DNA from: an archaeon GW2011_AR10
GTDB lineage: Archaea > Iainarchaeota > Iainarchaeia > Iainarchaeales > GW2011-AR10
Assembly: GCA_000830275.1 (NCBI GenBank)
Contig: CP010424.1
Coordinates: forward strand, 622,782-686,781
Direction of reading: 5' to 3'
Length of the DNA stretch: 64,000 nt
Positions 27,211-64,000 of the stretch are shown here, piece after piece; within the stretch, counting starts at the first letter, position 1; every line of letters begins with the position of its first letter. The notes under the pieces were generated by a model, which was not told where the DNA came from, ran no database searches, and saw only the letters and a list, made by a program, of their open reading frames with translations. The position numbers and the translations under genes were made by a program.

Positions 27211-27224
27211 AAAATGGTTTCACT

Positions 27225-47700: not shown

Positions 47701-50288
47701 TAAGCGTGCTTGGCGACTTGCAGCAGGAAGTAGAAGCCGGGGCAAGCATTGACAAGGTAACCGGAATAAACCCGCCGCAGGTAAAGAAAGGCAATGCAGC
47801 GGTAACTGAAACAAAGCTTGATGCAAAAGACGAGAAAACAAACAAGTACAAATCCGAATTGCAGCTTTGCGTTACAGGATTAACTGATTTGCATAATGCT
47901 AATGGAAAGAAGGTGAAGCTTGACGCGCAGTACAAGGTTACGAAAGCAAAGGCTGCAGCAAAAGAGGTTGAATTGCAAGTATGCGGCCTGCACCCAAGCA
48001 CTCTGCTTGACGAAGTGCAAAAGCAGCCTGCCGGCACTTATTACTTTAATCCCTCGTGGAAGGGCACCCCTGAAACAATCCAGTTGAAGGAACTCATTGA
48101 AGGAGAGGTTGCTGAAGCAAACCTTGCTGAAGCAGAGAAATCCGTTGCAAGCAACAAACCAGGCGGGCAGACAAAAATTGAGGACGCGAAGAAAACCCAG
48201 AGGCTGCGGGGGCTTGGAATATATGTTGGAACATGCAGTGCGGTTGCTGCTTTGGCAGGATGGTGGACTGGATTCGGGATATTTTTGAACCCCTTAATTG
48301 ACTGCATTATTCCTGCTGCTTGGTCAGGAGCAGACGACATCGGGTTAGGCGGAGTGAAGGAATGGATTTCAGATATTTCAGGAAAGGTGTTTGGTTTCCT
48401 TGGCGGAATCACTGACAGCCTTTTCGGAAAGTTTGATGATGTTACTGAAGCATTGACAGGGCCAACAGACAACATTGAAAACTTTGACGAGTTAAAGAAC
48501 AGTGCTTTCACGACCGTAAGCACTTACTCGATTTACCGTGGTATCACAAACCCAAGCGATATCGCAACTGCATCCAATGTTAGGTCAGCTGCAAAAACAG
48601 TTTCAGAAAACCTTGCAGACCAGATAATGAAAGACAATTTCCCGCATTATCCACTCATTAGGAGCGCGAGGAGCACTGCGCTTTGGAAAAACCTTTCAGA
48701 CAAGTATTACAACGAAATTGTTAAGGGGGCTGAATCATCTTACGGAAAATCAACGCTTGATAATGCGGTGAGAAGTGCAACTGGAGCATCACATGCAGCT
48801 GTTGCAGCCGACAGTAAAGTGGTTGAAGAGTTTGTTAAGCTTAAGGGAAACCTGAAGCCTGAAGCACAAAACCTTTTGAAGGGAAATAAGGCAACTGTGC
48901 TGAATGAAGCGTTTGATTTGCAGAAATACACAGGAGCCGCTGAAGGCTCAGGAACAGTTAAGAAGTGGGATATTGGAGTTGATAGAACCACCACTCCTCC
49001 TAAATATTCTGAAAAAAGCTTTAAGAGCACCGCAGCAGGAATTGCTGACCAGCTGACTAATGACACGTGGCCGCAAATCAGGAGTGACATGGCTGAAAAG
49101 CTTGGAGCAGAGTTTGTAGGAGAAAATGAAAAAGAATTGAGGTCACTTTACAGGAGAGGCGTTGGAGCAGCAGTGAGAAACCAGCTCTCAACCCCAGTTG
49201 ACGCTGGCACAGGAAGGCTTCTGTCTTTTTCCACTGAGTTCACGCCAGCAAACGCAAGAAGCTCCGTTACCGCTGGAGTTGAAAACATTAACAAGAATTT
49301 GGCCGGCAAGGCGCTTGAATTCGTGGAAAAGAAGGCCGGCCCGAAAGTGATGCAGGAGCTTGCACAAAAAGCAGATGAAGCAATTACAAGCACTAAAGGC
49401 ACTTACAGTTTGAAATGGACTAATTTCAAGTCATATGCGAAAGGTTTCCTCAAAAATTTCGGCAAAGGAATTGCTGGAGGACTGATAGCGAATGCTGCCG
49501 GCTTGGCCGCTTACAAGGCTTACATGAACAGCGCTGGAAAAGCGGTTGAAGCTGATGAAACTTTCCAAGCGATGCAAGGAAATGCAAGTGATGATGACGG
49601 TGATGGCTTAATTGATGAAGAGGTTGCTGACGGCATTGACAATGATGGAGACGGAAAAGTGGATGAGGATGTAATAGAAATCAAGTCAGACATTACGCTG
49701 AAAAAGTACAAGCCGTACAAGGTAACAATCAGGGAGGAGTTCGGCAGGAAAACTTATACAATTGATGAAGCCGGTGAAGGCGCGGAAATTCCTGCTGACG
49801 CAAAGTTCATTGAAAAGTGCGATGCAACCCTGCAGGAAGATTTCGAGGTTGTTGGGAGCCTGCTGCCACAAGCAAACGAATTCAGTGGACAGGCCCCACA
49901 GGTTGCCAGCTACTACAAGCATTACTCTCCAATTACAAGGCATTTCTCTGATGCGTTTAATGTGCCGGAAGCGCTGCTTGTAACTGTTGCTTCATGGAAG
50001 ACAGGCATGGGAACTCAAGGAAGCGTTGAGTGGATTACGAGCTGCAATTACGGCAGCGAGGAAACAAAGTCAGTTGAAAAGAGCTTTGAGTGCGCTGCAA
50101 GAGAACTAAGCACTGCACTGAATTCTTGCAGCGGGGAAGAAAACAGCAAGGAAAAGGTAACTTGCGCTTTGCAGAAATATGATTCCGCAGGGAACAAGAG
50201 GCCAAATGAAAAAGCAGCAAACTTTGATGAACTGTTTGAACAATTCGAGCTGTGGAACAAGAGGAAATTCACAATTGAGGCAAGCTGA
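41784..50288 (+). CDS. Giant surface protein 1 (2,834 aa) with N-terminal anchor and tandem carboxypeptidase-regulatory-like domains
   Basis: Start at ATG 41784 by paralogue alignment (track ATG 41760 adds 8 aa). Conserved N-terminal motif, transmembrane helix, then beta-sandwich repeats (SLIIRVVDSATEQRVQGATIRIFDADDEGLISEVTDEDGEYIERVDKGLSLRVVVSRDGY). Y/G/S-rich region at about 45230-45520; acidic DDDGDG...DNDGDGKVDED at about 49570-49680. Confidence 0.7.
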   Translation: MGISETLSGFYAKLEDKFYGIADFFDSKGIPVNSAIDWVEDKGIPAFPLTIAAIVVVVALLYGFVFAATQQVTVVFDLKDNNGNALSQVRVSAVNSAGNNVPLGKTSFKDGEDVTLAGVPVGGTIKFSSQKEGYIDGKFSLQVSGTENLALLRMKKDVQTIVGQISLVDTETGDPVGEAQVIATLSDKSTVECNAGESIGAYECVGVLEGDSAKVDVRTSNFEDSSFTVSFFEGSVSEFELQPKASAAEGKSSLIIRVVDSATEQRVQGATIRIFDADDEGLISEVTDEDGEYIERVDKGLSLRVVVSRDGYIKYDSGAEGIERTMRDDEELWLVSMVEGGATVTVRVRDAGGAPLTGVVVSLFNSEAELLDEEKTLFAGEVDFSDLNAEATYFVTAFLDRYVPAREIVRPLQSKELDIELERLTQSNSSNLRVFVVDERNSAVNNAFLNFFELEDGKKTPSGIPQQKSDVTGKATVPVSVNISMLVEAVKGAQRGEAEVEIKQQGLNEALVTVRKELGLVTFALLDEDKEPVQGGHLTIKSGAGEELFRATLSGQNEVTVDVGENDYVKIDFLGTDGKTHAEEIYVKEQSRVEVIIGGKGSASLSPTLEFLGVFSASGAEVEGIKRGQDYFLKFQVVFPEGKGNYGMHVRVGDDSVKFADSQDVGIIGLSATGAQAFYGRTFSPFPEPGFEGVDMQNEGNPGGYNKFVELSFTEGGTKIVKVRVKAKETATDSSFDVKFRAWSEAGRSFYRAPVDSVLETAAFSSEKGTLYAETLKESVRIFQTDSSCEDDLCAGFKFIRSNDSEFAPEDFKAVVGEVYALEVELNPSKEIDATIRAVTSRSNPKIFWQGYGIDNFIDFPDNNKQETSIEVKGITAMPGQAVKTRLFFKTVELETASITLQVVTADDVLNESFFFDIFLERDMEFSIQPDEVTLGKDFSILLKEDTGKGIENATIKLKDKDGKHIETIIGDGSLGKGLDGKYDVKNSFDPGVIKYEIAAEGFKPVEGELQVLKTGVLRLPEEVQVSIPAGQEQASVSVNLENISEELVQDIQFEVKRRGNFPVGMELKAGGVSSIQANSTYRVPFTAAYHGIAEREHGEVDVIARGRVLGKYSVSAETRVKIDFNPEVDPADIEFSKSKLVAYLASGYDNRQFYDNSYNQRYPSGYDSSLYGTGGSSPYGTSQYGTGGTSQYGTDYSGAGYYDSTSYPYSYSNNVYAQRYYPSYLTGYGSTDYSNYNDTLPYRYLNYSSAQQVEFTIRNNSDLDLVLVPDVVAEDKIDAEGIQVDVPQVTLKKKGTAVGGRREDEKAVKVSITNKLLRNYPNKQSFKFDLVFKSDAVTKSIPLEIFIWSPKFALEMQRNVELWLSQETPTSRAIAQVPLFVRNVGLAPVENIVFRASSASLRGNVNVRVIPAVPVPFLDKGQAITPPPALVAEAIRTEKTTLLDVKQIDVFGTIDGRQYEFGPIFVTTHISRPECLVVVPNSLEFLSEKETGAITKELKVKNTCAEEVRVRLIEPREFGSNSLDLAFPDEVVPPGSDRPIQIILTKNEAWNAQTQVFLRGFLVRSGRFTSSNPINVNLNIGKQGVQDKVAVEEISVPVCGEEGKAAEEKLVAFPKIATGNDCSNAYCDAKQLSEFLAEKIRSRIDETKRQVTNYKSDLLNVPTCETHSSGYCSFADLGLSGESFSVYFQNDILSPQLLKEALSGKGADLASYRTDYASGSDPGRFLGQIGKQVLINGRIEGCGRYRMSVNGAVKVQGSQLQPDLMVILIDVNPEGEALDNAEGAAGGAMTGKEVTEQCLPKIQNIANFLPLDEGFTPANRKDTLLGLVDVGGETPEEKQKLEGLGKEVATGMFGNEARFVQNATTSNRLNLQIGETTGYLVKVDIEKTGEGAKKTVKAFIQDAGTNAEKQGKVAKEAAQAIIGLRNNAIDGCISANDDYALLKSAAEVGELEIMACKDSKLRISVGESCCDISVLGDLQQEVEAGASIDKVTGINPPQVKKGNAAVTETKLDAKDEKTNKYKSELQLCVTGLTDLHNANGKKVKLDAQYKVTKAKAAAKEVELQVCGLHPSTLLDEVQKQPAGTYYFNPSWKGTPETIQLKELIEGEVAEANLAEAEKSVASNKPGGQTKIEDAKKTQRLRGLGIYVGTCSAVAALAGWWTGFGIFLNPLIDCIIPAAWSGADDIGLGGVKEWISDISGKVFGFLGGITDSLFGKFDDVTEALTGPTDNIENFDELKNSAFTTVSTYSIYRGITNPSDIATASNVRSAAKTVSENLADQIMKDNFPHYPLIRSARSTALWKNLSDKYYNEIVKGAESSYGKSTLDNAVRSATGASHAAVAADSKVVEEFVKLKGNLKPEAQNLLKGNKATVLNEAFDLQKYTGAAEGSGTVKKWDIGVDRTTTPPKYSEKSFKSTAAGIADQLTNDTWPQIRSDMAEKLGAEFVGENEKELRSLYRRGVGAAVRNQLSTPVDAGTGRLLSFSTEFTPANARSSVTAGVENINKNLAGKALEFVEKKAGPKVMQELAQKADEAITSTKGTYSLKWTNFKSYAKGFLKNFGKGIAGGLIANAAGLAAYKAYMNSAGKAVEADETFQAMQGNASDDDGDGLIDEEVADGIDNDGDGKVDEDVIEIKSDITLKKYKPYKVTIREEFGRKTYTIDEAGEGAEIPADAKFIEKCDATLQEDFEVVGSLLPQANEFSGQAPQVASYYKHYSPITRHFSDAFNVPEALLVTVASWKTGMGTQGSVEWITSCNYGSEETKSVEKSFECAARELSTALNSCSGEENSKEKVTCALQKYDSAGNKRPNEKAANFDELFEQFELWNKRKFTIEAS

Positions 50289-50334: not shown

Positions 50335-51807
50335 ATGACTGGAATAAAGGGGTTCACGCTTTTCACTGCACTTGTTGCATTCATACTGATTGTTTTATCG
50401 GTGCTGCTGGTTCAGACAATGATTCGCACCGAGAGGAATACAACTGACATCATTTCAGACATTCAGGAGGAACAGGAAATGCAGGCAATAGCTGATTTGG
50501 CGAGAGCAGAGGCACTGCAAACATTCAATTACGGCATCAGGTTTTCGATTGAGGACTGGCTCACAAAAGACGGGGATGGAGACGGCATTCCTGATAATGC
50601 TTACCTTTTGACGCCAAGCGAGTTGGCTGGAACTGATGCAGAGTCATGGGAGAACACAAAGAAAAAGTTCGCTGAATCCAATTTTGGTGTTGGAGGCGAA
50701 GGAACCCAGTTTGCCAACAGGGCAGCAAACCATCTTTCAACGCTGCTTGCAAGCACGCCTGATGTAAGGGGCTTCCAAGTAAATCTTGACAACAACAGCC
50801 AGGCGGTGATTGTTAGTGTGCTGGAACCATTGTTTGAGGACAGCAGTGCAAGGCAGGACTTTTTTGAAGTGATTCGGTGTGATGGCACTTGGGATGGTTG
50901 CCCGATAGGAACTTTTTATGTTAACCTTGACATTGCAAGACTGACTGATGAGCAGTACGAGAAGCTGCCGCAGATTGTCGTGAAAAAAATCACAACAAAA
51001 GGAGAGGTGGAGAGGACTTTGAGGGAGCCGATTCTTCCAAGGGGAAATTTGCAGATTTATGTGCCGATAAGAATCTTCAAGGCAATTGCTGGGGCAAGAG
51101 ATGTTGCAAGGACAGGCAGCGGGTTTTACTCTGGAGCAATTGATGCAACTTTGTTGGAGGTAAAGTTGGGGGTTTGTGGAGAGAACACTTGCGTGCCGGA
51201 ATACCATTCTGCTTCCGGCCCTGACATTGAAGGTTTTGCCTGCGTCGGCGACACTTACGCTGACCATCCAAAAATTTCAAGCATTCCAGTTTTGATTGAC
51301 GGAACATCTTTCAACTATGATCCAAACAATGAGGAGGAAATGAGGAGCAGGCTGATTAACGAAGTTGGCAGGCCAAGGCTCCTCAACTTCTTTGCAAATG
51401 AGCTGACGCAAAACCTGCCTAATGACTTGAGTGTCCCGGCGGTTGACTTTCGGCTTGTAACAATTCCTGCGGGAAGCGGCTATGACACAATCCAGAGAAC
51501 TTCTGTTATTGTTGTAACTCCTAAGACAAGGCAGGTTGATTTCATTGGTGCGCCATCTGGAGAAGCTGTTTGCGCGAGAATTGACAGGGTTGGCGGCTTC
51601 CTTGTGTTTGAGGACACCAAGCCGGATTACATGGTGAGCGAGTTGCCAAAATATGGTTCTCTTATCCCTACTAACAGGTATGCTGTGAGGCTTTCAACTG
51701 ACTCTTTTTCTGGAGAAGTTCCTGCTGTTAAAACCTGTGAAACCATTGCAACCCCAACTGGAATAGACCTGGCAGATTTTACTTACAGATGCGAGTTCAG
51801 GGGCTGA
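50335..51807 (+). CDS. Large pilin-like protein (490 aa) with class III signal peptide
   Basis: MTGIKGFTLFTALVAFILIVLSVLLVQ: K-G then a hydrophobic helix; contains DGDGDGIPDN. Confidence 0.5.
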   Translation: MTGIKGFTLFTALVAFILIVLSVLLVQTMIRTERNTTDIISDIQEEQEMQAIADLARAEALQTFNYGIRFSIEDWLTKDGDGDGIPDNAYLLTPSELAGTDAESWENTKKKFAESNFGVGGEGTQFANRAANHLSTLLASTPDVRGFQVNLDNNSQAVIVSVLEPLFEDSSARQDFFEVIRCDGTWDGCPIGTFYVNLDIARLTDEQYEKLPQIVVKKITTKGEVERTLREPILPRGNLQIYVPIRIFKAIAGARDVARTGSGFYSGAIDATLLEVKLGVCGENTCVPEYHSASGPDIEGFACVGDTYADHPKISSIPVLIDGTSFNYDPNNEEEMRSRLINEVGRPRLLNFFANELTQNLPNDLSVPAVDFRLVTIPAGSGYDTIQRTSVIVVTPKTRQVDFIGAPSGEAVCARIDRVGGFLVFEDTKPDYMVSELPKYGSLIPTNRYAVRLSTDSFSGEVPAVKTCETIATPTGIDLADFTYRCEFRG

Positions 51808-52111: not shown

Positions 52112-55100
52112 ATGCCTGAGGGGAAAAAGGGGCTTTACGCTTCACTTGAGGGAAAGTATTACGATTTGCTTGACTGGCTTGACACGAAGGGAATCCCTGT
52201 TTACAGTGTAGTTGACTGGATTGAGGACAAGAATATTCCTTCCTTTCCTGTTGCAGTGCTTTTCTCCTTTCTTGTGCTGATTTTGGTTGGCTGGCTTGTT
52301 TTGGGCTTGGTTGCGCCGGGCAAGGCAACGCTTTCTGTTTCGGTTTTTGATGAAAGCCTTTCTCCAGTTAGTAATGTTGAAGTGAGCGCTTCGACTGCTT
52401 CTGGGGGAACAATTGGCCCGGAGCTTACTGATGCAAGCGGTGTTGCAAGCATAACTGTGCCAATGAATGAGGAAATTCTTGTTGAAGCAAAAAAGGAGCC
52501 TGATTTCAGGACAAAAACTGAAACTTTCACTGCAATTAAGCAGGAGGAAAGCCTTGAGTTGGAGTTGCAGCGCACGGTTTCAACTTTGAGGAAAACAATT
52601 GAAATTTTGAGGCCTGGAACAAACGAGCTTGTGGACGAGCTTGTGGAGCTTGAGCTTCGATGCAGTGAAAAGCCAGAGTTCAGCGAGCGCGTAACAACCA
52701 CTACAGGCATAATTACTGTTGAAGTACAGAGCGATTGCGGAACACTTCACGTTACTCCTGCCAATGGGTTCACTGCTTCCGGCACAACAAGTTTTGATGT
52801 GAGGGTTGAGGGAACAATTGAACTGTTTTTGAGGGAAGAGGAAACAGGGAAAGGCACAATAATTGTTTCAGTTACTGACAGCTCTGGAACCCCACTGCAA
52901 GGAATTGATGTTTCGGTTGTAGTGCGGAGTGATGAATCAGAAATTGGCTCGGTTGTTGAAACAAAGCAGACTCTTGCTTCAGGCACTGTTACTTTCCTTG
53001 AGGTTCCGGAAGGAACATACTCTGTAACGGCTTTTGACAGAACAGGAACGTTCAGCGAATTTGATTCATCAGAAATTGGCTTGGTGCAGGAAGTTGCGGA
53101 TGGGGCAACCAAAACTTTTTCAATTGCATTGGAGAAAACAGTAGTGGGCTCAATAAGGGTTTTAGTGAAGGACGCTGTTTCGCTTAAGGCAATTGAGAAC
53201 GCAACTGTTTCAGTGAGCAAAGAATCAGTGAATCTCCCTCAAAAGAAAACCGATGCGGAGGGAAGAGCCGAGTTTGGTGTAGGGGAACAGGTAAAGTACA
53301 CTGTTGTTGTGGACAAGGAAGGCTACCTCATTGAAGAACTTGAACTGGAGCCTGCCAATGAGTTCAGGGAAGTTCTTTTAAGGGAGGCAACAGCTGAGAA
53401 CAGCCAGAGCCTTACAGTAATAGTGAGAGACGAGGTAGGCGACCCGATTGAAAATGTAAGAATAACTTTGAGGAACGCGGAAACTGATGCGCAGGTTGGA
53501 AGGGAGCTTGTTACTGGCATTGCAGGAATTGCGTTGTTTGAAAGAGTTGAGGCGGGAACATATTACGTGTTTGCCTTGAAGCCTGGCTTCGGGGAAAAAA
53601 CAAGCCAGACATTCACTTTGAACAGGAGGCAGGAAAACAGGGTGGAGCTAACCATTTCAATCGGTTCTGGAGCAGTTGAATTGATGGTGTTTGATGAAGC
53701 AAAGCAGCCAATGGCTGGGACAAGCGTTAAACTGCTTGACTTTTACTCGAAAGAAGTTTTAAGCGAGGGCATCACAGGCTCTGATGGAATTGCTTCTCTT
53801 GCTGCGAGAGCAGACAAAACAGTTTATGCGGTGGTAACCTTGAGCGGTTACCTGCCGTACATTACTAGAACTGTTAGGATGGGAAAGGATGTAACGCAGC
53901 AACTTGAGGCAGGCATGAGGAAGGAAATAAGTGCTCTTTCACTTGAACTGGTGAGCCTGCAGCTCGGCGAAGAAACTGTGAGAGACGTTGAGGTGCCAAG
54001 CCTTGAGCCGGGGCAAAGGTATAAGGCAAAGTTTTTGCTGCTGGTGCCTAAGGGCTCTGCTTTGGAGGAGGCTGGAGTGCATTTGAGGGTTGGCGCATCA
54101 GAGGAAGGCAAAACAAATGTGCTGGAGAAAGATGACCTGTATATTCTGGGTGTGAGTTCTGCTTTCAGTGAAATTCTGCGCGGCACTTCTTTCACTCCGC
54201 CTATTGGCTATGGCGCTGACGCGCAACATTTTACTTCAGCTGAAGCGAAGTGGGTTAATGTTTTCTTTTCACAGCCAGCAAACGGCGTGATTGAAGTTGA
54301 AGCAGAAATTCAGGTTAGGGAAAATGCAAGGCGCGGCTCAGCGCTTGACTTGTGGTATAGGGCTTGGGGGAAGACAGGAAGTTACCTTAGGTTTCCAAGC
54401 GATGCAGCTCTTGGAAGCTCTGAGAACAGTGCATCAAAGCAGGCACTGTATGCTCAGGCCAAGAACAAGAAGTTTTCTGTTGGCCCAACCAACCTTTGCT
54501 TGAACGAGTTCTGCTCAACTGTTTCAATTGAGGACTTGAGGGAAGAGCTTGAAACAAGCGTTGTGGACGAATATGTTGCGGAAATAGGCAACAATTACAG
54601 GTTAAAGTTTTCCATAAACAGTGTTTCATCAGAGCTATTCGAGCAAGCAGAGCTACAGGTGGTTGACTCAACAGGCAGCCTTGCATTTGGCAATTACGAC
54701 ATTTCAACTGTTGCCGGGGAGCGGAGAAGCGGAACTGCAACAGGCTCAGAGTTAAGGGTTGGAATAGGGAGCCTGGCAAAAGATGACTTCTTTAATGGAA
54801 CGCTTGAGTTCAGTTCAAGAAAGGAGGGAACAGCCTTAGTGCAATTAAGCGTCATTTCATCCAACCAGCGGGTTTTCGAGAAAGAGGTTAGGATCCTTGT
54901 TTTGCCGGCAGAAGAGATGAGCGTTGACATTTTGCCGAAAATAATTGTGCCATTCATTAACAACAACATTTTGGTGCAGGCTTCAACTGAGGCAGAGGAT
55001 GGGTTGCTGTTGCCTGTTCCAAATGCATCAGTTTCATTGAAGAAAGACGGCGAGGTTGTTGCCTCTGGTTTCACTGATTCAGCCGGAATTTTTCCTTACA

Positions 55101-58100
55101 CGCTGTTGAACCCGAACGCAGGCATAACTGTTGGGGTTAAGGTTGAGAAGCCTGGCTTCAGGCCGGTTGAAAAAGAAATAATCGTTACTGAGGACATTTT
55201 GGTTGCAACTCCTGCAACACTGAGGGAAACCCTTAAGGTTGGCTTGGCTCCAAGCAAAGAGCTTGCATTCGGTTTAAGCAATTTAACCCAAGTGCCCCTC
55301 ACTATTTCCAGTGTTGAGGAAAGCGCTGACTTCACTAACTTGGTGAAATTTTCATTTGATGAAACCCTTGAGGGAAGAGTAATTGGGGTTAGGGAGGACA
55401 GCAACTTAACTGTTAGGGTGAGCCTTGCTCCTGCTGGAACTATTGTTGATGAGCCTACTGCTGTGAATGGAGGGGTAAGCGTTTACGTAACGAACCCTGC
55501 ATTTAACCGCACTTGGCGCAGCGTTATTCCTGCAGAGATAAGGATTGGCTTTGGTGAGGAAATAGATGATGCAGACTGCTTCAGCATTTTTCCCAGCGAC
55601 TGGAGGATTTTCACTTCAACTGAGGCCAAATCGTTGAACGTTGATGTGAAGAACTCATGCAAGATTGGCGGAATTCCTGTTAATCTCAGGAACCTGCAGG
55701 CAAGGCTCGTAACCGGCAACCAAAACCAGGCTGGAGAATTCAGGGTTAAGAGCAACTTGGAGGGAAGCAACTCAGTAAATTTAACCGGCAGTTTCCAAAC
55801 CATTTCATTGGTTGTGCCGGAAAACTCGGAGTCAACTTTGACCTTTGATTTTAACCCTGCAAACGTCAAGAGCGCCAGCTCAGAGCTAAAGGTGGAGGTG
55901 AGGGCAATTAACCTTACGGTTAACGGGGCAGAAGAAGTGAAGCGGGCAATAAATGTGAAGGTTAGTGTGAATGACTTAGTGCAGTGCTTGGATATCCCGC
56001 AAAGGGAAGGCCTAAAGCTTTTGAGCTGCCCGTTCAATGTAGGTTATGGAAATTACCCCAACAATTTCGGCGGGGCATACGGTTATGGTGGGTATCCTTC
56101 TGGTTACTCTTACGGCCAAGGTTATGGTGGAACAAGCTATTATGGGAATCAGGCTTCAGGCTACAACCTTTATGGTGGAACAGGCTATTATGGGAACCAG
56201 GCTTCAGGCAACAACCTTTATGACCCTTCCAATACAGGCCTTGGTTATGGTAGCGGCTACAACAACTACAATCCTTACGGTTCCGGTTATGGACTTGGCG
56301 CTGGTTATGGTGGAACAACAAGCTCTTACGGTTACAGTTCCTATGACCCTTACCAAACTCAATCCGGCTACGGAAGCGGATTGCCTCCATACATTGGCAC
56401 GCTTTCACAGCTTGGCTCAACTTACCCTAACCCATCTTATTACTCCCCATCCTATGGCGGCGACTACTATGATAGAAGCGCTAACAACAGGTTTGGGTGC
56501 GGCCCTGGATTAGGCCAGGGAAAAGCAGAAATAGTGCTCAACAATTCCTGCACTGACTCGGTTGAAGTGCAGGCAAGGGATGCTGATGGTTTGATAATTA
56601 ATGAGTCAACTGTTAAGATTGAGAAAGGAAAGCAGGGAAAAATCAGTGTGCAGCCAGCCTACTTTGTTGGAAGGTATCCTGTAGAGATTTCAGCAAGGCT
56701 TGAAGGAAGCGAAGAGTCATTCACTCCGATTGATTCCGTAAACGTAATCGTGGAGAACCCTTTAACTCTTTCATACAGGGACTGCATCAGTGTTTCTCCT
56801 TCAAGGAAGCTTTCATTCAACAACTTTTTCGGAAGGCCTGTAACATTGAAAGTTATAAACAGCTGCGTGAATGAAGGAGTGCGGCTGCTTTTCAGCAACG
56901 ACACGATTTTCTTTTCAAGTGGCGCATTGAGGCAGCCAACCGACGTTAGGAGCGGATTCCACGAAATGATTGAGAACTGGGCAATACTTGATGAAAAGTT
57001 TGAGTCAGCACCAGACGGCAAAACCACTCAAATACTTGAGTTTGAAATAGTGAAAGCGCTGAAGCAGTACTGCAATCAAGCACCGCCTTTCCCAAAAGAG
57101 GGAAGCATTTTCCAGCAGGTGGGAAACTTGCGCTACTTTGCTTCTTCAGCGTACTACTCTGTTCTGGGAAGAGCAAGTTTGACTGTTAAGTTTTTCACTC
57201 CTTTTGGCAGTGAGAGCAGGATTGCTTTCCCGATGGAAATAGAGGACTTCTGGGAGGGGCTGCCTTACGGTGAAAGGCTCATAAGCTACGGTGACCCGAA
57301 TTACACTCCAGACCAATGCGTGAAGCCTGATGCATTGAATTTCAACAACACTTACAATGGGTGCATTCCTATTGGAGAGCTTGACAGGCTTGCAACGCAG
57401 CCTTTTTCAACAAAGAATAATGGAGGCTTAATGGTTGTTGCAGCGCCACAGCCAGTCAGCCAGACTTGCCAGAGCTTCCAGGCACTAGTGCAGGCCGGCG
57501 CGCCAGAGAAAGGCGGCTGCGGAACTGTTGACACAATTTCAGGGCTTTCAAGCAACAGGATTGAAAAGAACGGAATGGTGTTTTACTTTAATGCCCTCAA
57601 TAACCGCGACATTGAAATGCGCGTTGACAAGTCAGCCTGGAACGGAAAAAAGGTTGAGGTTGAGGAAACATTGTTTGTTACAGTTAACAGGGTGGTGCCT
57701 TCAAGCAGCAAGCGGGTTGCTGTGCCGGTCAAGCTGTGCGTTGAAGGCGGAGCTAATATTGGGCAGGAAGAGCAGAGCATAATTGACAAACTTGATGACA
57801 AGTACGGCGAAAACAGGTGGAAGGAACTCGGCGAGTCCGACTTGAATAAGGCAATAAAGGAGGCCAAACCCAATGCAACCAATGAAGAAATCAAAAAAAT
57901 AACGGATTTGGCTAATGAAACCCCAACAACAGGAGAGGCTTTTGTGTGCGAGGCGGGAAAGAGTGGCAGCGCTGTTTACAAGGAGCTTGGCTTTGACAAG
58001 CTGTTGTTTGATTGGCGCTATGACAGCATTGGCATGCAGGCGTGCGATGCAGGTAATGCAGTAGCCTATTACTGTGATGCAACACAGCTGTCAGTGGAGT

Positions 58101-60121
58101 TGAACAAGAAGGCAGAGCAGGTAAGGACAGCGGTAAGCAAGCTGCCGAGAGAAAACTGCGGGGTTGAAGGCATAACTGATTGCAATAAGTTTGAGAACTC
58201 GAAGGAGTTGCTGCGTTTCTTCCGCAGCACAGCTGATGTTACAGATCATGCAAGGAGTGATAAGCCTGTGCTGCGCTTCTTCAAGGACTCAAATGGCAAA
58301 ATACTTGAAAATACTTCTGCAACAGAGGAAACAAAGAAGACATTGAAGGAATTGATGGATTCAATCAAAGGCACTTCAACGGATTCGATTGCTTCACAGC
58401 AGAAAACAATTGATGACACAACAGAGCTGTTGTTGAAGCTTGCTGCCAACAAGGAAGTTGACAATGGCAAAGACATTGTTGGCTTGCTGAAGAAAGAGCC
58501 TACGGGCCTGCAGGACAAGCACAAGGAAACACTGAAAGAGTTGGGCATTACTGAAGGGGAAGTGCTTGCTGTTGGCAATGAGGAATTTTATCTCATTACT
58601 TTCGAGGAATTCAAGCTGTTCCACCTAAACACTGACAAAGCAAAGAATGAAGCGCAGTGCGGCGGCTCTCCTGAGAACAAGAACTGCTGGGTTGAAAAGA
58701 ATGAAACCGGAGAGGTAATCAAAGTCAGAATCAAGGAAACCAATGAAGGGAATTTAGACGGAACCCTTATTGACACAACTTTCATGCCAGACTTCTATAA
58801 CAGCTTTGCGGGCTTTGTTGTCGGAGTACGGAATAAGCCGGAATTGAATGACTCGCAAAGAAAGGTTTTGATGAAGGACATTAAGGGAAGCGAGTTTGGC
58901 TTGGCAGAATTCAGCAACTTTGAGGAATTCTATAACCAAGATATTAACTTTAATGCAAACCTTATAAAGGACGGCTACAGCACTGATTTCAGGAAAGACT
59001 TTGCGAAGGCATCAGAGTACAAGGAACATATTGTAGGGACATTCTATTCTGAAGACAGTGCTGCGCCAAGATGGGGTTTCACGGTTAAGCAGTCTGCAAG
59101 CGACAGTGGCGCAAGCAATGCAGCGCTGCCTGACACTGGCACTTACAATGTTGGCTTGGCTTATGATTGGAGCAAGGGAACTTTAAACAACCAAATAAAA
59201 GTGCAGGTTGACTTAACGCTGAAAGAAAGGCTTAAAGGCAATTACGCAAAGAACGCGCTGTTTTACCTGCCAGTGGATGGCAGGATTGGCTTTGAGTCAA
59301 GCAGCCTTGAATTCAGCAGGGAAGACTATGGCTCTGGTTTCAGCGGCAACACCGGCCTGCTTAGGTTTGCAAACTATTCTCAGGTTGAAGGGGCTGTGCT
59401 TGACCCGATTGCTGAAAAGGGTTCAGGCAAGGAACAGTTCAAGGTTAACTACACCTCTGCCTTTGATGTTGGAAAGACAGCTTCCAAAGTGCTTTCAATT
59501 GATTCAACTGCCAAAGAAATTGTTTTCTCTCCGAGAGACCCTGTTGCAGTTGAAGTTGGAGTTGAGAAGAGAACAAACCCGCAGATTCCTGCAGGGTTTT
59601 TGTACAGCGTTTTTGGCGGAACAACCCAGGCTGGAAGCGTTGCATCACTGCTTGAGTGGCAGGTAACAGAAGACACGGTAACGGATGATGGAAATAGAAC
59701 AGCAAAGGATTCAGCGCATGCAAGCGATGAATTATGCAAAACAGGAAGCGAATCATTTTATGGCTTTGTTTTTAGCAGCGGGAAAGTAGGCCAAACAAAG
59801 ATGAAGACAATAATTTATGCTCCCACTAACACTGCATCGGTTGCAGTTTCGCGGCTCAACATTGTGTGCTGGAAGGACTCTGGCAGCGGAAGGGCAAGGG
59901 ACATTCTTGCAGATAAAAGCTTCACGCTTTCCATTGGGTCGAACCAGCTGAATCACTCTGAGAAGGACAGGATCAGAAGTGATTACACTGTTAAGAATTT
60001 GATTGAAATGGTTAAGAGCGGTGGCGAGAAAGGAAGGGTTTGCGTTGAGTCAGGAACTGAAACAGAGAAGAAACTAAACTTTTACTGGAACCCAGACAAG
60101 ATATTCGATGAATTCGGTTAG
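52112..60121 (+). CDS. Giant surface protein 2 (2,669 aa), paralogue of giant 1
   Basis: Same N-terminal motif, transmembrane helix (VAVLFSFLVLILVGWLVLGLV) and repeated beta-sandwich modules (GTIIVSVTDSSGTPLQGIDVSVVV..., GSIRVLVKDAVSLKAIENATVSVSKE...); Y/G/S-rich region at about 56040-56475; no C-terminal hydrophobic segment. Confidence 0.7.
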   Translation: MPEGKKGLYASLEGKYYDLLDWLDTKGIPVYSVVDWIEDKNIPSFPVAVLFSFLVLILVGWLVLGLVAPGKATLSVSVFDESLSPVSNVEVSASTASGGTIGPELTDASGVASITVPMNEEILVEAKKEPDFRTKTETFTAIKQEESLELELQRTVSTLRKTIEILRPGTNELVDELVELELRCSEKPEFSERVTTTTGIITVEVQSDCGTLHVTPANGFTASGTTSFDVRVEGTIELFLREEETGKGTIIVSVTDSSGTPLQGIDVSVVVRSDESEIGSVVETKQTLASGTVTFLEVPEGTYSVTAFDRTGTFSEFDSSEIGLVQEVADGATKTFSIALEKTVVGSIRVLVKDAVSLKAIENATVSVSKESVNLPQKKTDAEGRAEFGVGEQVKYTVVVDKEGYLIEELELEPANEFREVLLREATAENSQSLTVIVRDEVGDPIENVRITLRNAETDAQVGRELVTGIAGIALFERVEAGTYYVFALKPGFGEKTSQTFTLNRRQENRVELTISIGSGAVELMVFDEAKQPMAGTSVKLLDFYSKEVLSEGITGSDGIASLAARADKTVYAVVTLSGYLPYITRTVRMGKDVTQQLEAGMRKEISALSLELVSLQLGEETVRDVEVPSLEPGQRYKAKFLLLVPKGSALEEAGVHLRVGASEEGKTNVLEKDDLYILGVSSAFSEILRGTSFTPPIGYGADAQHFTSAEAKWVNVFFSQPANGVIEVEAEIQVRENARRGSALDLWYRAWGKTGSYLRFPSDAALGSSENSASKQALYAQAKNKKFSVGPTNLCLNEFCSTVSIEDLREELETSVVDEYVAEIGNNYRLKFSINSVSSELFEQAELQVVDSTGSLAFGNYDISTVAGERRSGTATGSELRVGIGSLAKDDFFNGTLEFSSRKEGTALVQLSVISSNQRVFEKEVRILVLPAEEMSVDILPKIIVPFINNNILVQASTEAEDGLLLPVPNASVSLKKDGEVVASGFTDSAGIFPYTLLNPNAGITVGVKVEKPGFRPVEKEIIVTEDILVATPATLRETLKVGLAPSKELAFGLSNLTQVPLTISSVEESADFTNLVKFSFDETLEGRVIGVREDSNLTVRVSLAPAGTIVDEPTAVNGGVSVYVTNPAFNRTWRSVIPAEIRIGFGEEIDDADCFSIFPSDWRIFTSTEAKSLNVDVKNSCKIGGIPVNLRNLQARLVTGNQNQAGEFRVKSNLEGSNSVNLTGSFQTISLVVPENSESTLTFDFNPANVKSASSELKVEVRAINLTVNGAEEVKRAINVKVSVNDLVQCLDIPQREGLKLLSCPFNVGYGNYPNNFGGAYGYGGYPSGYSYGQGYGGTSYYGNQASGYNLYGGTGYYGNQASGNNLYDPSNTGLGYGSGYNNYNPYGSGYGLGAGYGGTTSSYGYSSYDPYQTQSGYGSGLPPYIGTLSQLGSTYPNPSYYSPSYGGDYYDRSANNRFGCGPGLGQGKAEIVLNNSCTDSVEVQARDADGLIINESTVKIEKGKQGKISVQPAYFVGRYPVEISARLEGSEESFTPIDSVNVIVENPLTLSYRDCISVSPSRKLSFNNFFGRPVTLKVINSCVNEGVRLLFSNDTIFFSSGALRQPTDVRSGFHEMIENWAILDEKFESAPDGKTTQILEFEIVKALKQYCNQAPPFPKEGSIFQQVGNLRYFASSAYYSVLGRASLTVKFFTPFGSESRIAFPMEIEDFWEGLPYGERLISYGDPNYTPDQCVKPDALNFNNTYNGCIPIGELDRLATQPFSTKNNGGLMVVAAPQPVSQTCQSFQALVQAGAPEKGGCGTVDTISGLSSNRIEKNGMVFYFNALNNRDIEMRVDKSAWNGKKVEVEETLFVTVNRVVPSSSKRVAVPVKLCVEGGANIGQEEQSIIDKLDDKYGENRWKELGESDLNKAIKEAKPNATNEEIKKITDLANETPTTGEAFVCEAGKSGSAVYKELGFDKLLFDWRYDSIGMQACDAGNAVAYYCDATQLSVELNKKAEQVRTAVSKLPRENCGVEGITDCNKFENSKELLRFFRSTADVTDHARSDKPVLRFFKDSNGKILENTSATEETKKTLKELMDSIKGTSTDSIASQQKTIDDTTELLLKLAANKEVDNGKDIVGLLKKEPTGLQDKHKETLKELGITEGEVLAVGNEEFYLITFEEFKLFHLNTDKAKNEAQCGGSPENKNCWVEKNETGEVIKVRIKETNEGNLDGTLIDTTFMPDFYNSFAGFVVGVRNKPELNDSQRKVLMKDIKGSEFGLAEFSNFEEFYNQDINFNANLIKDGYSTDFRKDFAKASEYKEHIVGTFYSEDSAAPRWGFTVKQSASDSGASNAALPDTGTYNVGLAYDWSKGTLNNQIKVQVDLTLKERLKGNYAKNALFYLPVDGRIGFESSSLEFSREDYGSGFSGNTGLLRFANYSQVEGAVLDPIAEKGSGKEQFKVNYTSAFDVGKTASKVLSIDSTAKEIVFSPRDPVAVEVGVEKRTNPQIPAGFLYSVFGGTTQAGSVASLLEWQVTEDTVTDDGNRTAKDSAHASDELCKTGSESFYGFVFSSGKVGQTKMKTIIYAPTNTASVAVSRLNIVCWKDSGSGRARDILADKSFTLSIGSNQLNHSEKDRIRSDYTVKNLIEMVKSGGEKGRVCVESGTETEKKLNFYWNPDKIFDEFG
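56126..56221 (+). repeat. In-frame 48-bp tandem duplication inside the Y/G-rich region of giant gene 2
   Basis: Unit 1 (56126-56173) encodes GGTSYYGNQASGYNLY and unit 2 (56174-56221) GGTGYYGNQASGNNLY; the two units differ at a handful of positions. Confidence 0.6.
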
Positions 60122-60875: not shown

Positions 60876-63800
60876 ATGGGTGTCCTAGATTCATTGAAAA
60901 ACATTTATTTTGGCCTCGAGGAAAAGTACTATTCTCTGCTGGACAAAATCGATGAAAGGATCCCAATTTACAAGATAATCGACCCAATTGACAAGATTGT
61001 GCCGAGTTTTGCACTGGTTTTAATCATCGGTTTCTTGCTCCTTGTTTTGGCACTATGGTGGCTTGCAGGAATACTGCTGCCGCCGACAACCTCAACCCTG
61101 ACAATTGTTGTGGTGGAAGAGGATAAAACTCCAATAGAAAATGCTGCCGTAACTTTTTCGGTTGGCGGTGAGGAAGAAAGCAGGGAGCGCACAAACGAAA
61201 ACGGTGAAGCAAAGCTTGAGGGCATTGAAAAGGGAACAGAGGTGTTCGTTGAAGCCGAGAAAGAAGGCTATCAGACAAGGACAAGGAGCGTGTTCGTTTC
61301 AGAGGTTCCAAGCCAGGTTGAAGAAATCGTTTTGGAGCTGGAGGAAGCTGCATTTGAAACAAAAACAATCAGGCTTGTTGATTCTCTTGGGCAAGGCGTT
61401 CCGGCTGAGTTCACGCTTACTTTCAGCTGCAGTGACCCTTTTGCAACTCCGCCTTCACCGGTAAACCTGCTTAGAAGCGATTTTGGGGTTGCAAGGGTTC
61501 AGGTGCCAAGCAACTGCGGAACACTGCGCGTTTCAGTAATTGATGATGCAGGCTATGAAAACATAACAAGCATTGAGGTCATTGGGAATGACTTCAGGAT
61601 TGAGTTAAGTGAAGCAGTAAAGCCTGAAGGCACAATCGCGGTAAACCTGCTGGATGAAGACGGAAATCCAATTGAGGACTCAGTTGAAGTGCAGTTGTAC
61701 CGCTACGATGACCTGGTTCAGAACCCGGAAATAGGGCCAATTGATTTTGGTTACAGTTCCGGCGGGCAAGCAACATTTGTTGCAACTGTGGGACAGTACG
61801 TGGTGAAGACGTTTGACTCTTCCGGAGTTTATGGGGATGAAACTTCCGCCAGGATAACGCTTTCAGCTGATGAAACCAAGACAGTTAACATCACTTTAAC
61901 TGCGAATGTCATTGGGAGCATTAAGATTCAGGTAATTGATTCTGCTTCAAGGCAGCCGGTTGACAATGCAAAGGTAACATTAAAGTATCAGAGCGATGAA
62001 AGGCAGGTGGCGCAGCTCACAACTGACTCGGATGATGACGCAATAGTTGAGTTCTCCATTTCCAGGGACGTGGAATACAGGGTTTTGGTTGAAGCAGAAG
62101 CCTACCAGCTTGGAAAAAGGGAGAGCCTTGAAATAAGCAGTGCTGTTGTAGTGGTTGAGCTCAACAAGTGCACTCCAACAACTTGCGGAAAGCTTTTAGT
62201 GAAGGTGCTAGACCAAGACGGGGAACCAGTGGAAAATGCTGCTGTTTCATTGTACAATGCTTCAACCAATTACCTGGCTGGCTACAGCAACAAGGTGTCT
62301 GATCTCAATGGAGTTGCAGAGTTTACTGGAGTCAGCTCCGGAAACTACTTTGCGTTTGCGTTCAAGGAAACAATTTCAGGGAGAAGCGACACAACATATT
62401 TCAGCAGTACAAGCAATGACGATGAAGACGTTGACTTGACTGTTTCAATGGAGATTCCAAACGGGATTGTGAGGGCGCTTATTGTTGACAAGGAAGGAAG
62501 AGGAATTGCTTTTCCAATTGTTACTGTGTTTGATGCGCGCACAAACGAGGTCATTGGCTCAAGGCAGGGGGAAGCGGATGGCACCTTCGAGCTTGAAACA
62601 AAGGCTGACAAAAGGGTTTACCTGCGCGTTAGGCAGAAGGACTCAAAGCCAAGGATGGCAGACTACTTCACTGTAGCGAGGCCTGTTGTGCCGTCAACCA
62701 TTCAGGAGTTCACAATAGTAATGGAGCCGGAAATAATTGACAAGGACATCGAGGCAGAGTTTTTGGGTTTGTTCCAAGCAGGGGAAAGGGCAAAGACTCT
62801 TTCAAAAGGAGAACAGTACACGGCAAGATTCAGGTTGCGCGTGCCAGAGGAAAAGGATTACTCTGAAACAGGAATGCACATCAGGGTTGGAAAAGAACTC
62901 ATAATGGAAAAAGACCCCATTGTGTTGAAGGAAATAAACGCTCCAGCAGCATCAATCATCAAGGCAACAAAGTTTGACCCTGACTCAGGATTAAGCGAAC
63001 AGCAATATGCTTTGACGAATGATGACGCAAAATGGTCCAACATTGTTTGGAGCAATGAGCCGGCTGCAGGAATATATGAGGTTGAATCGGTTGTGGAAAT
63101 AAAGGAAACCGCCTCAATTCGCGATGAGCTGGAAGTGCATTGGCGGGGCTGGGCTGAAAACGGAATCAGGGAAAGAAATCCTGAGGATGACTCTGTTTCA
63201 ATTGAGCTTTACTCTAATACCCACACGCAGGTGTTTGAGGTTGGCGTAACCACTTTGTGCAGTGAGGACTTCTGTTTCAGCGCAAGGATAAGGGACCAGG
63301 AAGCAGGCCTAACCGAATCTGTTTCTGATGCGTACACTGCAAGGATTGGGAACACTTACGAATTTAGGTTCATTATTACAAACAACAACCCTTCAAGGAT
63401 TCACGACAACGCGGATCTTAGAATCAACAACGTTGACCAGGCAGTCAGGTTTTTGGAGTACAGCATGGTGAACGCGCAAACAGGAGAACTGCAAGGCGTA
63501 GTCAATGGTTCAGAATTTCCAAGGCTGAACGTTGGCAATTTGAGCCCAAACCAGGACATTGTTCTGACAACAGAGTTCGTAACATTGAAGCCAATCACAG
63601 GCATCATAAGCATCAGGCTTGTATCTGATGAGGCAATTGTTTTCGAGAAAAACCTTACAATCCAGATTTCTGCGCCGAAGGAAATGACTGTAACTGTTCT
63701 ACCGCAGCGCTATGCTTCCGGCATAGAAACAGACATTAATGTGCTGGTCAAGGACAAGGAAACAAGGCTTGAGCTGGAGGAAGCTGTTGTAAGGCTCAAA

Positions 63801-64000
63801 GACAGAAGGGATAACACCATTGAAGCAACTCAAACAGGCAAAGACGGCTTTGCTTTCCTCATTGTTCCAGCGCAGATGCCGGGAGAGGTTCTAACGCTTG
63901 AAGTAAGAAAGCCTGGCTACAACACGAAGGAAGTTGAGCTGAAAATTGAGTCAGGGGTGCTTGAGTTAAGCCCTGACCAGCTAGGCGTGCAGTTGAATGT
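60876..64000 (+). CDS. Giant surface protein 3 (5' partial, >1,040 aa), third paralogue
   Basis: Hand translation from ATG 60876 stays open to the window end (absent from the ORF track, presumably because no stop is reached). N-terminus MGVLDSLKNIYFGLEEKYYSLLDKIDERIPIYKIIDPIDKIVPSFALVLIIGFLLLVLALWWLAG aligns with giants 1 and 2, followed by similar beta-sandwich modules. Confidence 0.6.
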   Translation, partial: MGVLDSLKNIYFGLEEKYYSLLDKIDERIPIYKIIDPIDKIVPSFALVLIIGFLLLVLALWWLAGILLPPTTSTLTIVVVEEDKTPIENAAVTFSVGGEEESRERTNENGEAKLEGIEKGTEVFVEAEKEGYQTRTRSVFVSEVPSQVEEIVLELEEAAFETKTIRLVDSLGQGVPAEFTLTFSCSDPFATPPSPVNLLRSDFGVARVQVPSNCGTLRVSVIDDAGYENITSIEVIGNDFRIELSEAVKPEGTIAVNLLDEDGNPIEDSVEVQLYRYDDLVQNPEIGPIDFGYSSGGQATFVATVGQYVVKTFDSSGVYGDETSARITLSADETKTVNITLTANVIGSIKIQVIDSASRQPVDNAKVTLKYQSDERQVAQLTTDSDDDAIVEFSISRDVEYRVLVEAEAYQLGKRESLEISSAVVVVELNKCTPTTCGKLLVKVLDQDGEPVENAAVSLYNASTNYLAGYSNKVSDLNGVAEFTGVSSGNYFAFAFKETISGRSDTTYFSSTSNDDEDVDLTVSMEIPNGIVRALIVDKEGRGIAFPIVTVFDARTNEVIGSRQGEADGTFELETKADKRVYLRVRQKDSKPRMADYFTVARPVVPSTIQEFTIVMEPEIIDKDIEAEFLGLFQAGERAKTLSKGEQYTARFRLRVPEEKDYSETGMHIRVGKELIMEKDPIVLKEINAPAASIIKATKFDPDSGLSEQQYALTNDDAKWSNIVWSNEPAAGIYEVESVVEIKETASIRDELEVHWRGWAENGIRERNPEDDSVSIELYSNTHTQVFEVGVTTLCSEDFCFSARIRDQEAGLTESVSDAYTARIGNTYEFRFIITNNNPSRIHDNADLRINNVDQAVRFLEYSMVNAQTGELQGVVNGSEFPRLNVGNLSPNQDIVLTTEFVTLKPITGIISIRLVSDEAIVFEKNLTIQISAPKEMTVTVLPQRYASGIETDINVLVKDKETRLELEEAVVRLKDRRDNTIEATQTGKDGFAFLIVPAQMPGEVLTLEVRKPGYNTKEVELKIESGVLELSPDQLGVQLN

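Follow-up and report, generated by a model that had tools for sequence, protein, structure and literature searches.

Tyr-rich low-complexity loops at a shared insertion site in a predicted PapD-like Ig domain of giant proteins from the archaeon GW2011_AR10

Introduction

Little is understood of the means by which DPANN archaea attach to other cells, a role for which their giant surface proteins are leading candidates. The locus described here raises the question of what a long Tyr-rich, low-complexity segment is doing inside each of two such giants, which are encoded in a 64,000-nucleotide stretch of the genome of archaeon GW2011_AR10 (contig CP010424.1, positions 622,782 to 686,781 of the forward strand). 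This whole stretch is referred to below as the window, and all positions are those of the window. GW2011_AR10 is a DPANN archaeon (Diapherotrites/Iainarchaeota) with a genome of approximately 1.24 megabases, and close relatives carry the labels Candidatus Diapherotrites or Iainarchaeum. Giant 1 (AJF60237.1, 2834 amino acids) is encoded on the + strand at 41784..50288, the accession corresponding to the frame, which is open from 41760, when read from 41784. Giant 2 (2669 amino acids), which is identical to AJF60239.1 of GW2011_AR10, is encoded on the + strand at 52112..60121 and shares the architecture of its N-terminal anchor with giant 1. The two proteins are paralogues, with 22% identity over the first approximately 1190 amino acids.

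An original prediction, made from the DNA alone, held that both giants contain Tyr/Gly/Ser-rich segments with near-identical in-frame DNA repeats, that these repeats are substrates for length change and that the composition of the segments is typical of adhesive or phase-separating sequences rather than of folded domains. The analysis reported here places both segments, according to structural models and alignments, in the same loop of one PapD-like immunoglobulin (Ig) domain.

Results

The Tyr-rich segments were found in both giants at the places predicted, in frame within the long + strand open reading frames (ORFs) of these proteins. The segment of giant 2 extends from amino acid 1310 to 1466 (approximately 157 residues; 56039..56509, + strand) and is rich in Tyr, Gly, Ser and Asn. 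Its GYG/YGG/SGY-type composition was confirmed, the fractions of Gly, Tyr, Ser and Asn being approximately 0.25, approximately 0.20, 0.13 and 0.09, respectively, with no Lys or Glu, as compared with 0.024 for Tyr and 0.155 for Lys plus Glu in the remainder of the protein; over the 159 residues from amino acid 1310 to 1468, Gly amounts to 0.26 and Tyr to 0.21. The Tyr/Ser/Gly-rich segment of giant 1 (amino acids 1156-1259, 104 residues; 45225..45536, + strand) lies between strand A (KLVAYL) and strand B (QQVEFTIRNN), and fractions of 0.18 for Tyr, 0.16 for Ser and 0.10 for Gly were noted over the 141 residues around it. No long Tyr-rich low-complexity stretch was present in any other ORF of the window. 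Two ORFs that overlap the segment of giant 2 (56046-56513, + strand, 155 amino acids and 56034-56420, - strand, 128 amino acids) were rejected as genes and most probably reflect readthrough of stop-poor low-complexity DNA.

The near-identical in-frame repeats were also recovered by Tandem Repeats Finder, which identified a 48-base pair (bp) tandem duplication in giant 2 (2.1 copies, 94% matches; 56122..56222, + strand) with the highest score of the whole window (181). In codon register, copy 1 occupies 56123-56170 and copy 2 occupies 56171-56218. These copies encode YGGTSYYGNQASGYNL and YGGTGYYGNQASGNNL. Of their 48 nucleotides, 3 differ (at positions 14, 27 and 41 of the unit), and the longest exact stretch in common is 13 nucleotides. 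In the segment of giant 1, a perfect 24-bp duplication of GTSQYGTG units (2.0 copies, 100%; 45323..45369, + strand) is overlapped by a 39-bp periodicity (2.0 copies, 85%; 45290..45368, + strand). The 48-bp and 24-bp repeats are all in frame, and the observed repeat identities were unmatched in 2000 codon shuffles of each segment, the best of which reached 0.62, 0.79 and 0.69 for periods of 48, 24 and 39 bp, respectively.

The structural context of each segment was evident from AlphaFold (AF2) models. The model of giant 2 amino acids 1241-1645, obtained with a 9-sequence alignment, consisted of a short strand (LKLL), the Tyr-rich loop and then a beta-sandwich with predicted local distance difference test (pLDDT) values of 73-93. 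The loop itself (amino acids 1308-1468, model residues 68-228) had values of 24-35 and no secondary structure. The model of giant 1, obtained with a 3-sequence alignment and weaker, contained a strand at residues 64-69, pLDDT values of 21-35 for residues 71-172 and a second strand at residues 175-184; the loop (amino acids 1155-1256) was again without secondary structure while the flanking strands had values of 62-86. Disorder is thereby predicted for both loops (pLDDT 21-35), and the earlier claim that they are not folded domains gains support from these values and the lack of secondary structure as well as from the near absence of Lys, Glu, Val and Ile and the even spacing of aromatic residues described below. 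No match to the loop was found among PDB sequences by phmmer at E values up to 10.

The beta-sandwich of giant 2 was compared with the PDB by Foldseek, which returned FaeE, Caf1M, the PapD-like domain of HYDIN, MSP and the ASH domain of CEP192 with E values of 1e-5 to 3e-4, probabilities of 1.00 and TM-scores on the target of 0.3-0.55. The predicted host of the loop is accordingly described here as a PapD-like/ASH/MSP-type Ig domain (amino acids 1288-1549; 55973..56758, + strand). No Pfam or NCBIfam model matched this region of giant 2, the matches being to CarboxypepD_reg, Big_1 and related models in the N-terminal part. In an alignment of giant 1 with its relatives, the insert falls between C[LV]EFSK..L (strand A) and V.FT..N.C (strand B), which indicates that both paralogous families share the A-B loop as insertion site. 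The length of the insert among giant 1 relatives was 0 amino acids for P0012 and the L002 orthologue, approximately 30 for L004, 55 for P0183 and 95 for P0184 and 104 for GW2011_AR10. The insert at this homologous site spans 0-104 amino acids among the relatives of giant 1 and 9-204 among those of giant 2. The models therefore identify the Tyr-rich segments as A-B loop insertions of one PapD-like Ig domain, not inter-domain linkers, and their occurrence at the homologous site of that domain is a point absent from the original prediction. Since the ends of the modeled loop are on neighboring strands of one sheet, the loop would form a lateral lariat that adds nothing to the length of the stalk.

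The extent to which this loop is retained was determined from a family search by phmmer, performed with the region downstream of the loop as query against 1.84 billion cluster representatives. This search returned 235 proteins, 48 of them at E<=1e-30 and most 2300-2700 amino acids long. Hidden Markov models of the two loop flanks placed the insertion site in 91 representatives (50% identity level), which comprised 88 with a loop of at least 50 amino acids and three with essentially no insert. Loop length ranged from 25 to 220 amino acids over the family (median 97), and representatives that share the loop are only 25-40% identical. Compared with the remaining protein, pooled loops were enriched in Tyr (4.2-fold) and Gly (2.3-fold) and depleted of Lys (0.09-fold, i.e., 11-fold down), Glu (0.16-fold), Val (0.20-fold) and Ile (0.26-fold); the median aromatic fraction was 0.20 and the median net charge -1. 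This bias suggests that the composition of the loops, as read from their sequences, is under selection. Among closer orthologues, two conserved islands, [YF]DPY.....GYG.G.PP[YF][ILV]G and NYS.P[FY]Y.GD, are separated by stretches of variable length. The corresponding islands of giant 2 are YDPYQTQSGYGSGLPPYIG and YYSPSYGGD, and the 48-bp repeat sits in the first variable stretch.

Family members were also identified by a scan with the degenerate N-terminal motif of the giants, in which L014, L038, L049 and L118 were true family loci among the matches listed, most of the others being unrelated Vibrio or Streptomyces genes. A metagenome-assembled genome (MAG) labeled Candidatus Micrarchaeota was found to encode a family member with a GYG-rich loop of at least 160 amino acids at the homologous site. 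Upstream of the GYG-rich loop, this locus (L014, JAZDJR010000014.1, minus strand from approximately 4750) also contains a cupredoxin-like insert (…GHGHGITIDAFG…). A second Tyr-rich segment, 150-350 amino acids past the first, was noted in many members, including P0009 (1716-1829), P0095 (1536-1694) and P0113 (1457-1566); giant 2 of GW2011_AR10 has only a short Cys-flanked stretch at this place. A search of genome contigs for related loci with a single-protein query returned no relatives.

The spacing of aromatic residues in the loops was more even than expected from their composition. Thus, the coefficient of variation (CV) of aromatic gaps was 0.57 for giant 2 as opposed to 0.84+-0.13 for residue shuffles, 0.4% of which were as low, and 0.47 for giant 1 as opposed to 0.81+-0.15, with 0.1% as low. 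Across the family, the CV was below expectation in 89% of 88 loops (Wilcoxon p 8e-14). Gaps of 3-5 residues were enriched 1.4-2.0-fold while gaps of 1 and 2 residues were reduced to 0.45-fold and 0.65-fold, respectively. The loop of giant 2 also contains 12 [GS]Y[GS] motifs. Even distribution of aromatic stickers in polar spacers is a described hallmark of prion-like domains and is reported to favor dynamic assemblies over aggregation (PMC8638251). The loops of the giants share with prion-like low-complexity sequences their composition, an even aromatic distribution and predicted disorder, the last being of moderate strength in view of the shallow alignments. The depletion of i+2 gaps speaks against an alternating beta-strand pattern. 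An amphipathic beta-hairpin or pore-forming stem was considered and rejected on account of this depletion and because the loops have almost no aliphatic residues.

Four Cys residues mark the base of the giant 2 loop. The outer two, C1 (amino acid 1292, on the strand A side; 55985..55987, + strand) and C4 (amino acid 1480, NNSC, in strand B; 56549..56551, + strand), were each invariant in 91 of 91 representatives. The inner two, C2 (amino acid 1306, SCPFN, at the loop start; 56027..56029, + strand) and C3 (amino acid 1463, FGCGPG, at the loop end; 56498..56500, + strand), were both present in 37 of the 91 representatives and both absent from 53, the one mixed case being ambiguous owing to incomplete alignment. 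On a neighbor-joining tree built from the flanking sequences, at least 9 changes of state were counted for C2 and for C3, about 9 of them joint, and no taxon was clearly mixed. We infer from these patterns that nested disulfides, C1-C4 and C2-C3, would close the base of the loop. In giant 1 of GW2011_AR10 (45177-45572, + strand), the equivalents of C1 and C4 are both replaced (ADIEFSK, RNNSD) while five relatives keep both, which is a second case of paired Cys loss.

Comparison of near-identical strains (6 assemblies for the giant 2 repeat, 7 for the giant 1 repeat) provided a direct view of length change. Two strains differed by 1 and 8 nucleotides per 8010 nucleotides, and the 48-bp repeat was identical in L125 and L126. 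Two 16-amino acid units were present in giant 2 from five of the six assemblies whereas the protein from the sixth (P0016, MBS3059409.1, MAG J4224; approximately 99.9% identical) had one unit, YGGTSYYGNQASGNNL, and was exactly 16 amino acids shorter. This unit is a hybrid, with the Ser of copy 1 and the Asn of copy 2, and would be explained by a single event, an unequal crossover or slippage, that fell between positions 14 and 41 of the unit. The alternative, duplication followed by three substitutions in 96 nucleotides, is poorly compatible with the 0.01-0.1% by which these strains differ elsewhere. Metagenome assemblers normally use k-mers longer than 13 nucleotides, and since the two copies share no longer exact stretch, collapse during assembly is an unlikely source of the one-copy allele. 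The repeat of giant 2, as exemplified by P0016, thus appears to undergo length change, as had been predicted, while the same prediction was not borne out for giant 1, the repeat of which was identical in all seven assemblies that cover it. Likewise, no within-species length change was seen among seven sequences from three other species. A scan of metagenome DNA for strain variants, made with a 20-mer just upstream of the loop, returned only an unrelated chance match (L001). P0004 and P0187, which belong to one 90% cluster, differ by seven amino acids, three of them (S to F, S to F and D to G) in the 174-amino acid loop, and this hints at faster substitution in the loop as well.

Between species, gaps made up 9-41% of loop alignment columns as opposed to 0-5% of columns in the flanks. 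Lineage-specific tandem repeats with differing units were detected in 15 of the 88 loops but in 0 of 88 shuffled ones; the loop of P0007, for example, has its own 30-bp repeat (2.5 copies) in DNA. Taken together, the strain and species comparisons indicate that repeat-driven length change is recurrent over evolutionary time and infrequent within populations, and the fixed repeat of giant 1 and lack of change in three species point to occasional indel evolution rather than a hypermutable locus.

The giants have a single N-terminal transmembrane (TM) helix followed by CarboxypepD_reg and Big_1-type Ig repeats (Pfam) and, in giant 1, a long C-terminal region. A third giant gene of the same cluster begins at 60876 (5' part, 60876..64000, + strand) and continues past the end of the window; in the near-identical contigs L125 and L126, this giant has 2444 amino acids. 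P0010, a relative of the third giant, is without the Tyr-rich insert. A cytoplasmic motif of approximately 45 amino acids (…YY..LD.L…GIPVY..VD.IE..NIPSFP) directly precedes the TM helix in all three giants (41784-42000, 52112-52320 and 60876-61080, + strand) and is kept family-wide; it could be an export signal or be recognized by a cytoplasmic partner. Between giants 1 and 2 lies a gene for a 490-amino acid protein (50335..51807, + strand), which forms part of the context and not of the loop. Its N-terminus (MTGIKG/FTLFTALVAFILIV) is type IV pilin-like, with a weak match to NCBIfam ComGF (E 5e-4) far under the curated cutoff, and genes for proteins of 344-415 amino acids occupy the same position in L002 and L004. 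Gene order is kept in related contigs (i.e., a giant-1-like gene, a gene for approximately 350-490 amino acids, a giant-2-like gene, small genes and one or two further giants), and four or more giants are in tandem at related loci. The C-terminal half of each giant and the neighboring genes were also scanned with NCBIfam and, at a relaxed threshold, with Pfam, and the weak pilin-like N-terminus of the 490-amino acid protein was the sole informative result.

Within the C-terminal part of giant 1 (approximately 48500-49700, + strand) are a hydrophobic stretch, GLGIYVGTCSAVAALAGWWTGFGIFLNPLIDCIIPAAW, and a second stretch, DDDGDGLIDEEVADGIDNDGDGKVDEDV, which is acidic, rich in D and G and resembles a calcium-binding motif; both are absent from giant 2. 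Upstream of the giants, a T2SSE-type ATPase (759 amino acids) and a T2SSF-like membrane protein (785 amino acids) are encoded on the - strand (24853-29504), followed on the + strand by a 185-amino acid protein (31029-31586) with a weak exosortase/archaeosortase-like match under the curated cutoff. A 1016-amino acid protein (32926-35976, + strand) has an N-acetylmuramoyl-L-alanine amidase domain, PKD domains and a weaker glucosaminidase match, and is thus a bacterial-type murein hydrolase in an archaeal genome, encoded upstream of the giant cluster. An 82-amino acid ORF just 5' of giant 1 (40956-41204, + strand; …RIVYAFDGKSIEFALLDDRGHV) is, by eye, a candidate RelE/ParE-type toxin.

Discussion

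The reading that we favor, to which we would assign about an even chance of being correct, is that each Tyr-rich segment is a disordered, uncharged sticker-and-spacer loop displayed laterally on the stalk of a giant and serving multivalent cohesion or adhesion. On this reading, an almost uncharged, prion-like Tyr/Gly/Ser/Asn-rich sequence would be inserted between strands A and B at about mid-length of an N-terminally membrane-anchored surface protein. The ends of the loop would be held by the beta-sheet and the C1/C4 pair and, in giant 2, also by the C2/C3 pair, probably as a disulfide, such that the loop would be a lateral lariat and not a spacer in series. Its sequence would change mainly by in-frame tandem duplication and deletion, through slippage or unequal recombination between short repeats, while selection would retain a composition (Tyr every 3-5 residues; no Lys, Glu, Val or Ile) and a few short motifs. 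The proposed function is a multivalent, low-specificity, Tyr-mediated cohesion, in which the loops may bind neighboring giants on the same cell, giving clusters or a cohesive coat, or the surface of a partner or host cell. The surface context consists of the N-terminal TM helix and Ig repeats of the giants and their clustering with a pilin-like gene and genes for a type IV pilus-type ATPase and platform protein. Extracellular exposure of the loops and their adhesive or cohesive role are accordingly proposed from sequence features and gene context.

Several observations weigh against this reading. With shallow alignments of 9 and 3 sequences behind the AF2 models, low pLDDT by itself is weak evidence of disorder. 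Three members without insert, together with giant 1 relatives in which the insert is as short as 0 amino acids, imply that the fold, and perhaps also the function, can do without the loop. Instead of serving as generic stickers, the conserved islands (DPY...GYG.G.PPY.G and NYS.P.Y.GD) could pack on the domain or form a specific binding motif. The C2-C3 disulfide, although probable, is proposed on the basis of covariation, and the tree on which Cys changes were counted was built from approximately 160 flank columns. Among 20 strain-level sequences, a single case of length change within a species was observed, and the one-copy allele is known from the protein sequence of a metagenome assembly.

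A more specific version of the proposed cohesive function is speculative and, in our estimation, a long shot. According to this version, disulfide-closed Tyr/Gly lariats held at a fixed height on the stalks of several giants would bind one another to give a reversible, FG-nucleoporin-like meshwork that surrounds the cell or lies at the site of contact with a partner, with a strength tuned by repeat-driven changes in loop length. The loops would then be the first prokaryotic extracellular sticker-spacer cohesion modules, and phase-separation-type physics would be part of archaeal cell-cell attachment.

An unlikely alternative, although one that merits serious attention, is that the segment is neutral filler, i.e., that a permissive A-B loop has accumulated slippage-prone low-complexity DNA and that its composition is whatever is harmless in an exposed extracellular loop. 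Consistent with filler are the variation in loop length (9-220 amino acids), the three members without insert, the range of 0-104 amino acids among giant 1 relatives, the predominance of indels in loop evolution and the lack of Pfam or PDB sequence matches. Tolerated filler would not be expected, however, to persist in 88 of 91 representatives at identities of only 25-40%, to exclude Lys, Glu, Val and Ile so strongly and consistently, or to keep a non-random aromatic spacing family-wide (p about 1e-13). Short conserved motifs within the loop, the co-varying Cys pair at its base and a similar insert at the identical site in a 22%-identical paralogue argue in the same direction. Even if it were filler, the segment would still show clearly how indels drive evolution in a natural loop that tolerates insertions.

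An ordered assembly, in which the loops form cross-beta zippers resembling amyloid or low-complexity aromatic-rich kinked segments (LARKS), or adopt a Gly/Tyr-rich fold invisible to AlphaFold, is a distinctly less probable alternative, in which a functional amyloid or true prion-like domain would tie the giants together in a rigid lattice. The composition of the loops is like that of archaeal candidate prion domains, among which a high Tyr/Phe content marked off the amyloid-positive ones (bioRxiv 10.1101/2020.07.20.212902), and the 12 [GS]Y[GS] motifs of giant 2, the conserved islands and the shallow AF2 alignments are all compatible with hidden order. Aromatic spacing of the even type seen here is, however, reported to favor liquid-like behavior and disfavor aggregation (PMC8638251). 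Moreover, i+2 aromatic spacing is reduced to 0.65-fold, aliphatic residues are almost absent, and neither length nor register is conserved, a 16-amino acid unit having been lost between strains.

We consider very doubtful the possibility that the loop is a scaffold for post-translational modification, with Tyr, Ser, Thr and Asn as sites of O- or N-glycosylation or of oxidative Tyr-Tyr cross-linking, of the kind known from spore coats, resilin and plant glycine-rich wall proteins, in a covalently reinforced or heavily glycosylated collar. These residues are abundant in a loop that is probably exposed outside the cell, and loop composition resembles that of Gly/Tyr-rich structural proteins. Against such a scaffold, the loop of giant 2 has no N-X-S/T sequon and those of orthologues have 0-4, and no gene for a peroxidase, tyrosinase or glycosyltransferase was found beside the giants in the scans made. 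Oxidative cross-linking is also less likely in the anoxic groundwater from which GW2011_AR10 comes, while O-glycosylation of the loop may occur.

Least probable of all is a contingency locus, at which repeats exist for frequent, reversible length variants that alter the surface or evade viruses or host defenses, since the in-frame repeats, the one strain-level difference in copy number, the lineage-specific repeats in 15 of 88 loops and the 3 of 7 differences between P0004 and P0187 that fall in the loop are outweighed by the presence of only two copies of the long units (48 and 24 bp) with a longest exact match of 13 nucleotides, by repeats that are fixed in giant 1 (7 of 7), two-copy in giant 2 (5 of 6) and unchanged in three other species, and by length changes that never shift the frame and thus permit no on/off switching.

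The present analysis provides the family (at least 235 cluster representatives) with an easily recognizable conserved module, namely a lariat, rich in Tyr and predicted to be disordered, that projects from one fixed place in a PapD-like domain. Sticker number and spacing, exclusion of charge and a co-varying Cys pair are the measurable constraints on this module. Literature searches gave no account of these giants, and none of archaeal surface proteins with Tyr-rich loops.

With respect to known systems, the host domain resembles PapD-like/ASH/MSP domains by fold (TM-score up to 0.55) and not by any model of the Pfam clan, and we know of no reported member of that group with a low-complexity A-B loop of more than 100 amino acids. 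Gly/Tyr-rich structural proteins (i.e., resilin, plant glycine-rich wall proteins and insect cuticle or chorion proteins) are extracellular, rich in Gly, Tyr, Ser, Pro and Asn, without stable fold and often oxidatively cross-linked. Their repeats extend over the whole protein, in contrast with a loop of 100-160 amino acids in a protein of approximately 2700 amino acids from an anaerobe. In fungal Flo/Als adhesins, in-frame repeats change in copy number by recombination or slippage and thereby alter the surface, and sticky stretches cluster the adhesins. The giants are similar in being surface proteins that evolve by in-frame changes in repeat copy number. The fungal repeats, however, are many Ser/Thr-rich stalk units in series whereas those of the giants are two-copy units in a lateral loop, within-species variation of the giants is rare, and there is no homology between the two groups.

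The SPEARE giants of Nanohaloarchaeota are long, membrane-anchored, multi-domain proteins proposed to function in contact with other cells (PMC6642349), and the GW2011_AR10 giants resemble them in being very long, mostly extracytoplasmic and membrane-anchored proteins of a DPANN archaeon with a small genome. None of the serine protease, laminin-G or restriction-endonuclease domains of SPEARE type was found in giants 1 and 2 with Pfam and NCBIfam. The GW2011_AR10 giants differ further in that they are anchored N-terminally and are encoded as several paralogues in one cluster that includes a pilin-like gene. Descriptions of SPEARE proteins do not include a Tyr-rich loop.

In the survey of Zajkowski et al. 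(bioRxiv 10.1101/2020.07.20.212902), archaeal prion-like domains, including those of DPANN, were overrepresented in cell-wall and adhesion functions, and it was by their Tyr/Phe content that amyloid-positive candidates differed from amyloid-negative ones. The text of that survey does not mention GW2011_AR10 and names DPANN and Diapherotrites once each, in a taxon list; neither the giant family nor the loop-insertion architecture is described there. Compared with classical prion domains, the loops of the giants are richer in Gly and Tyr and poorer in Gln and Asn. Their likeness to prion-like domains of the FUS family includes a sequence rich in Gly, Ser, Asn, Gln and Tyr with few charged or aliphatic residues, regularly spaced Tyr, [GS]Y[GS] motifs and predicted disorder (PMC8638251). 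FUS-family domains are free terminal domains of nucleic-acid-binding proteins whereas the archaeal loop, with no sequence homology to them, would be extracellular and closed within an Ig-type domain of a membrane-anchored giant. Sticker-spacer grammar, which has been studied mostly in eukaryotic intracellular proteins, would thereby be extended to an archaeal extracellular setting.

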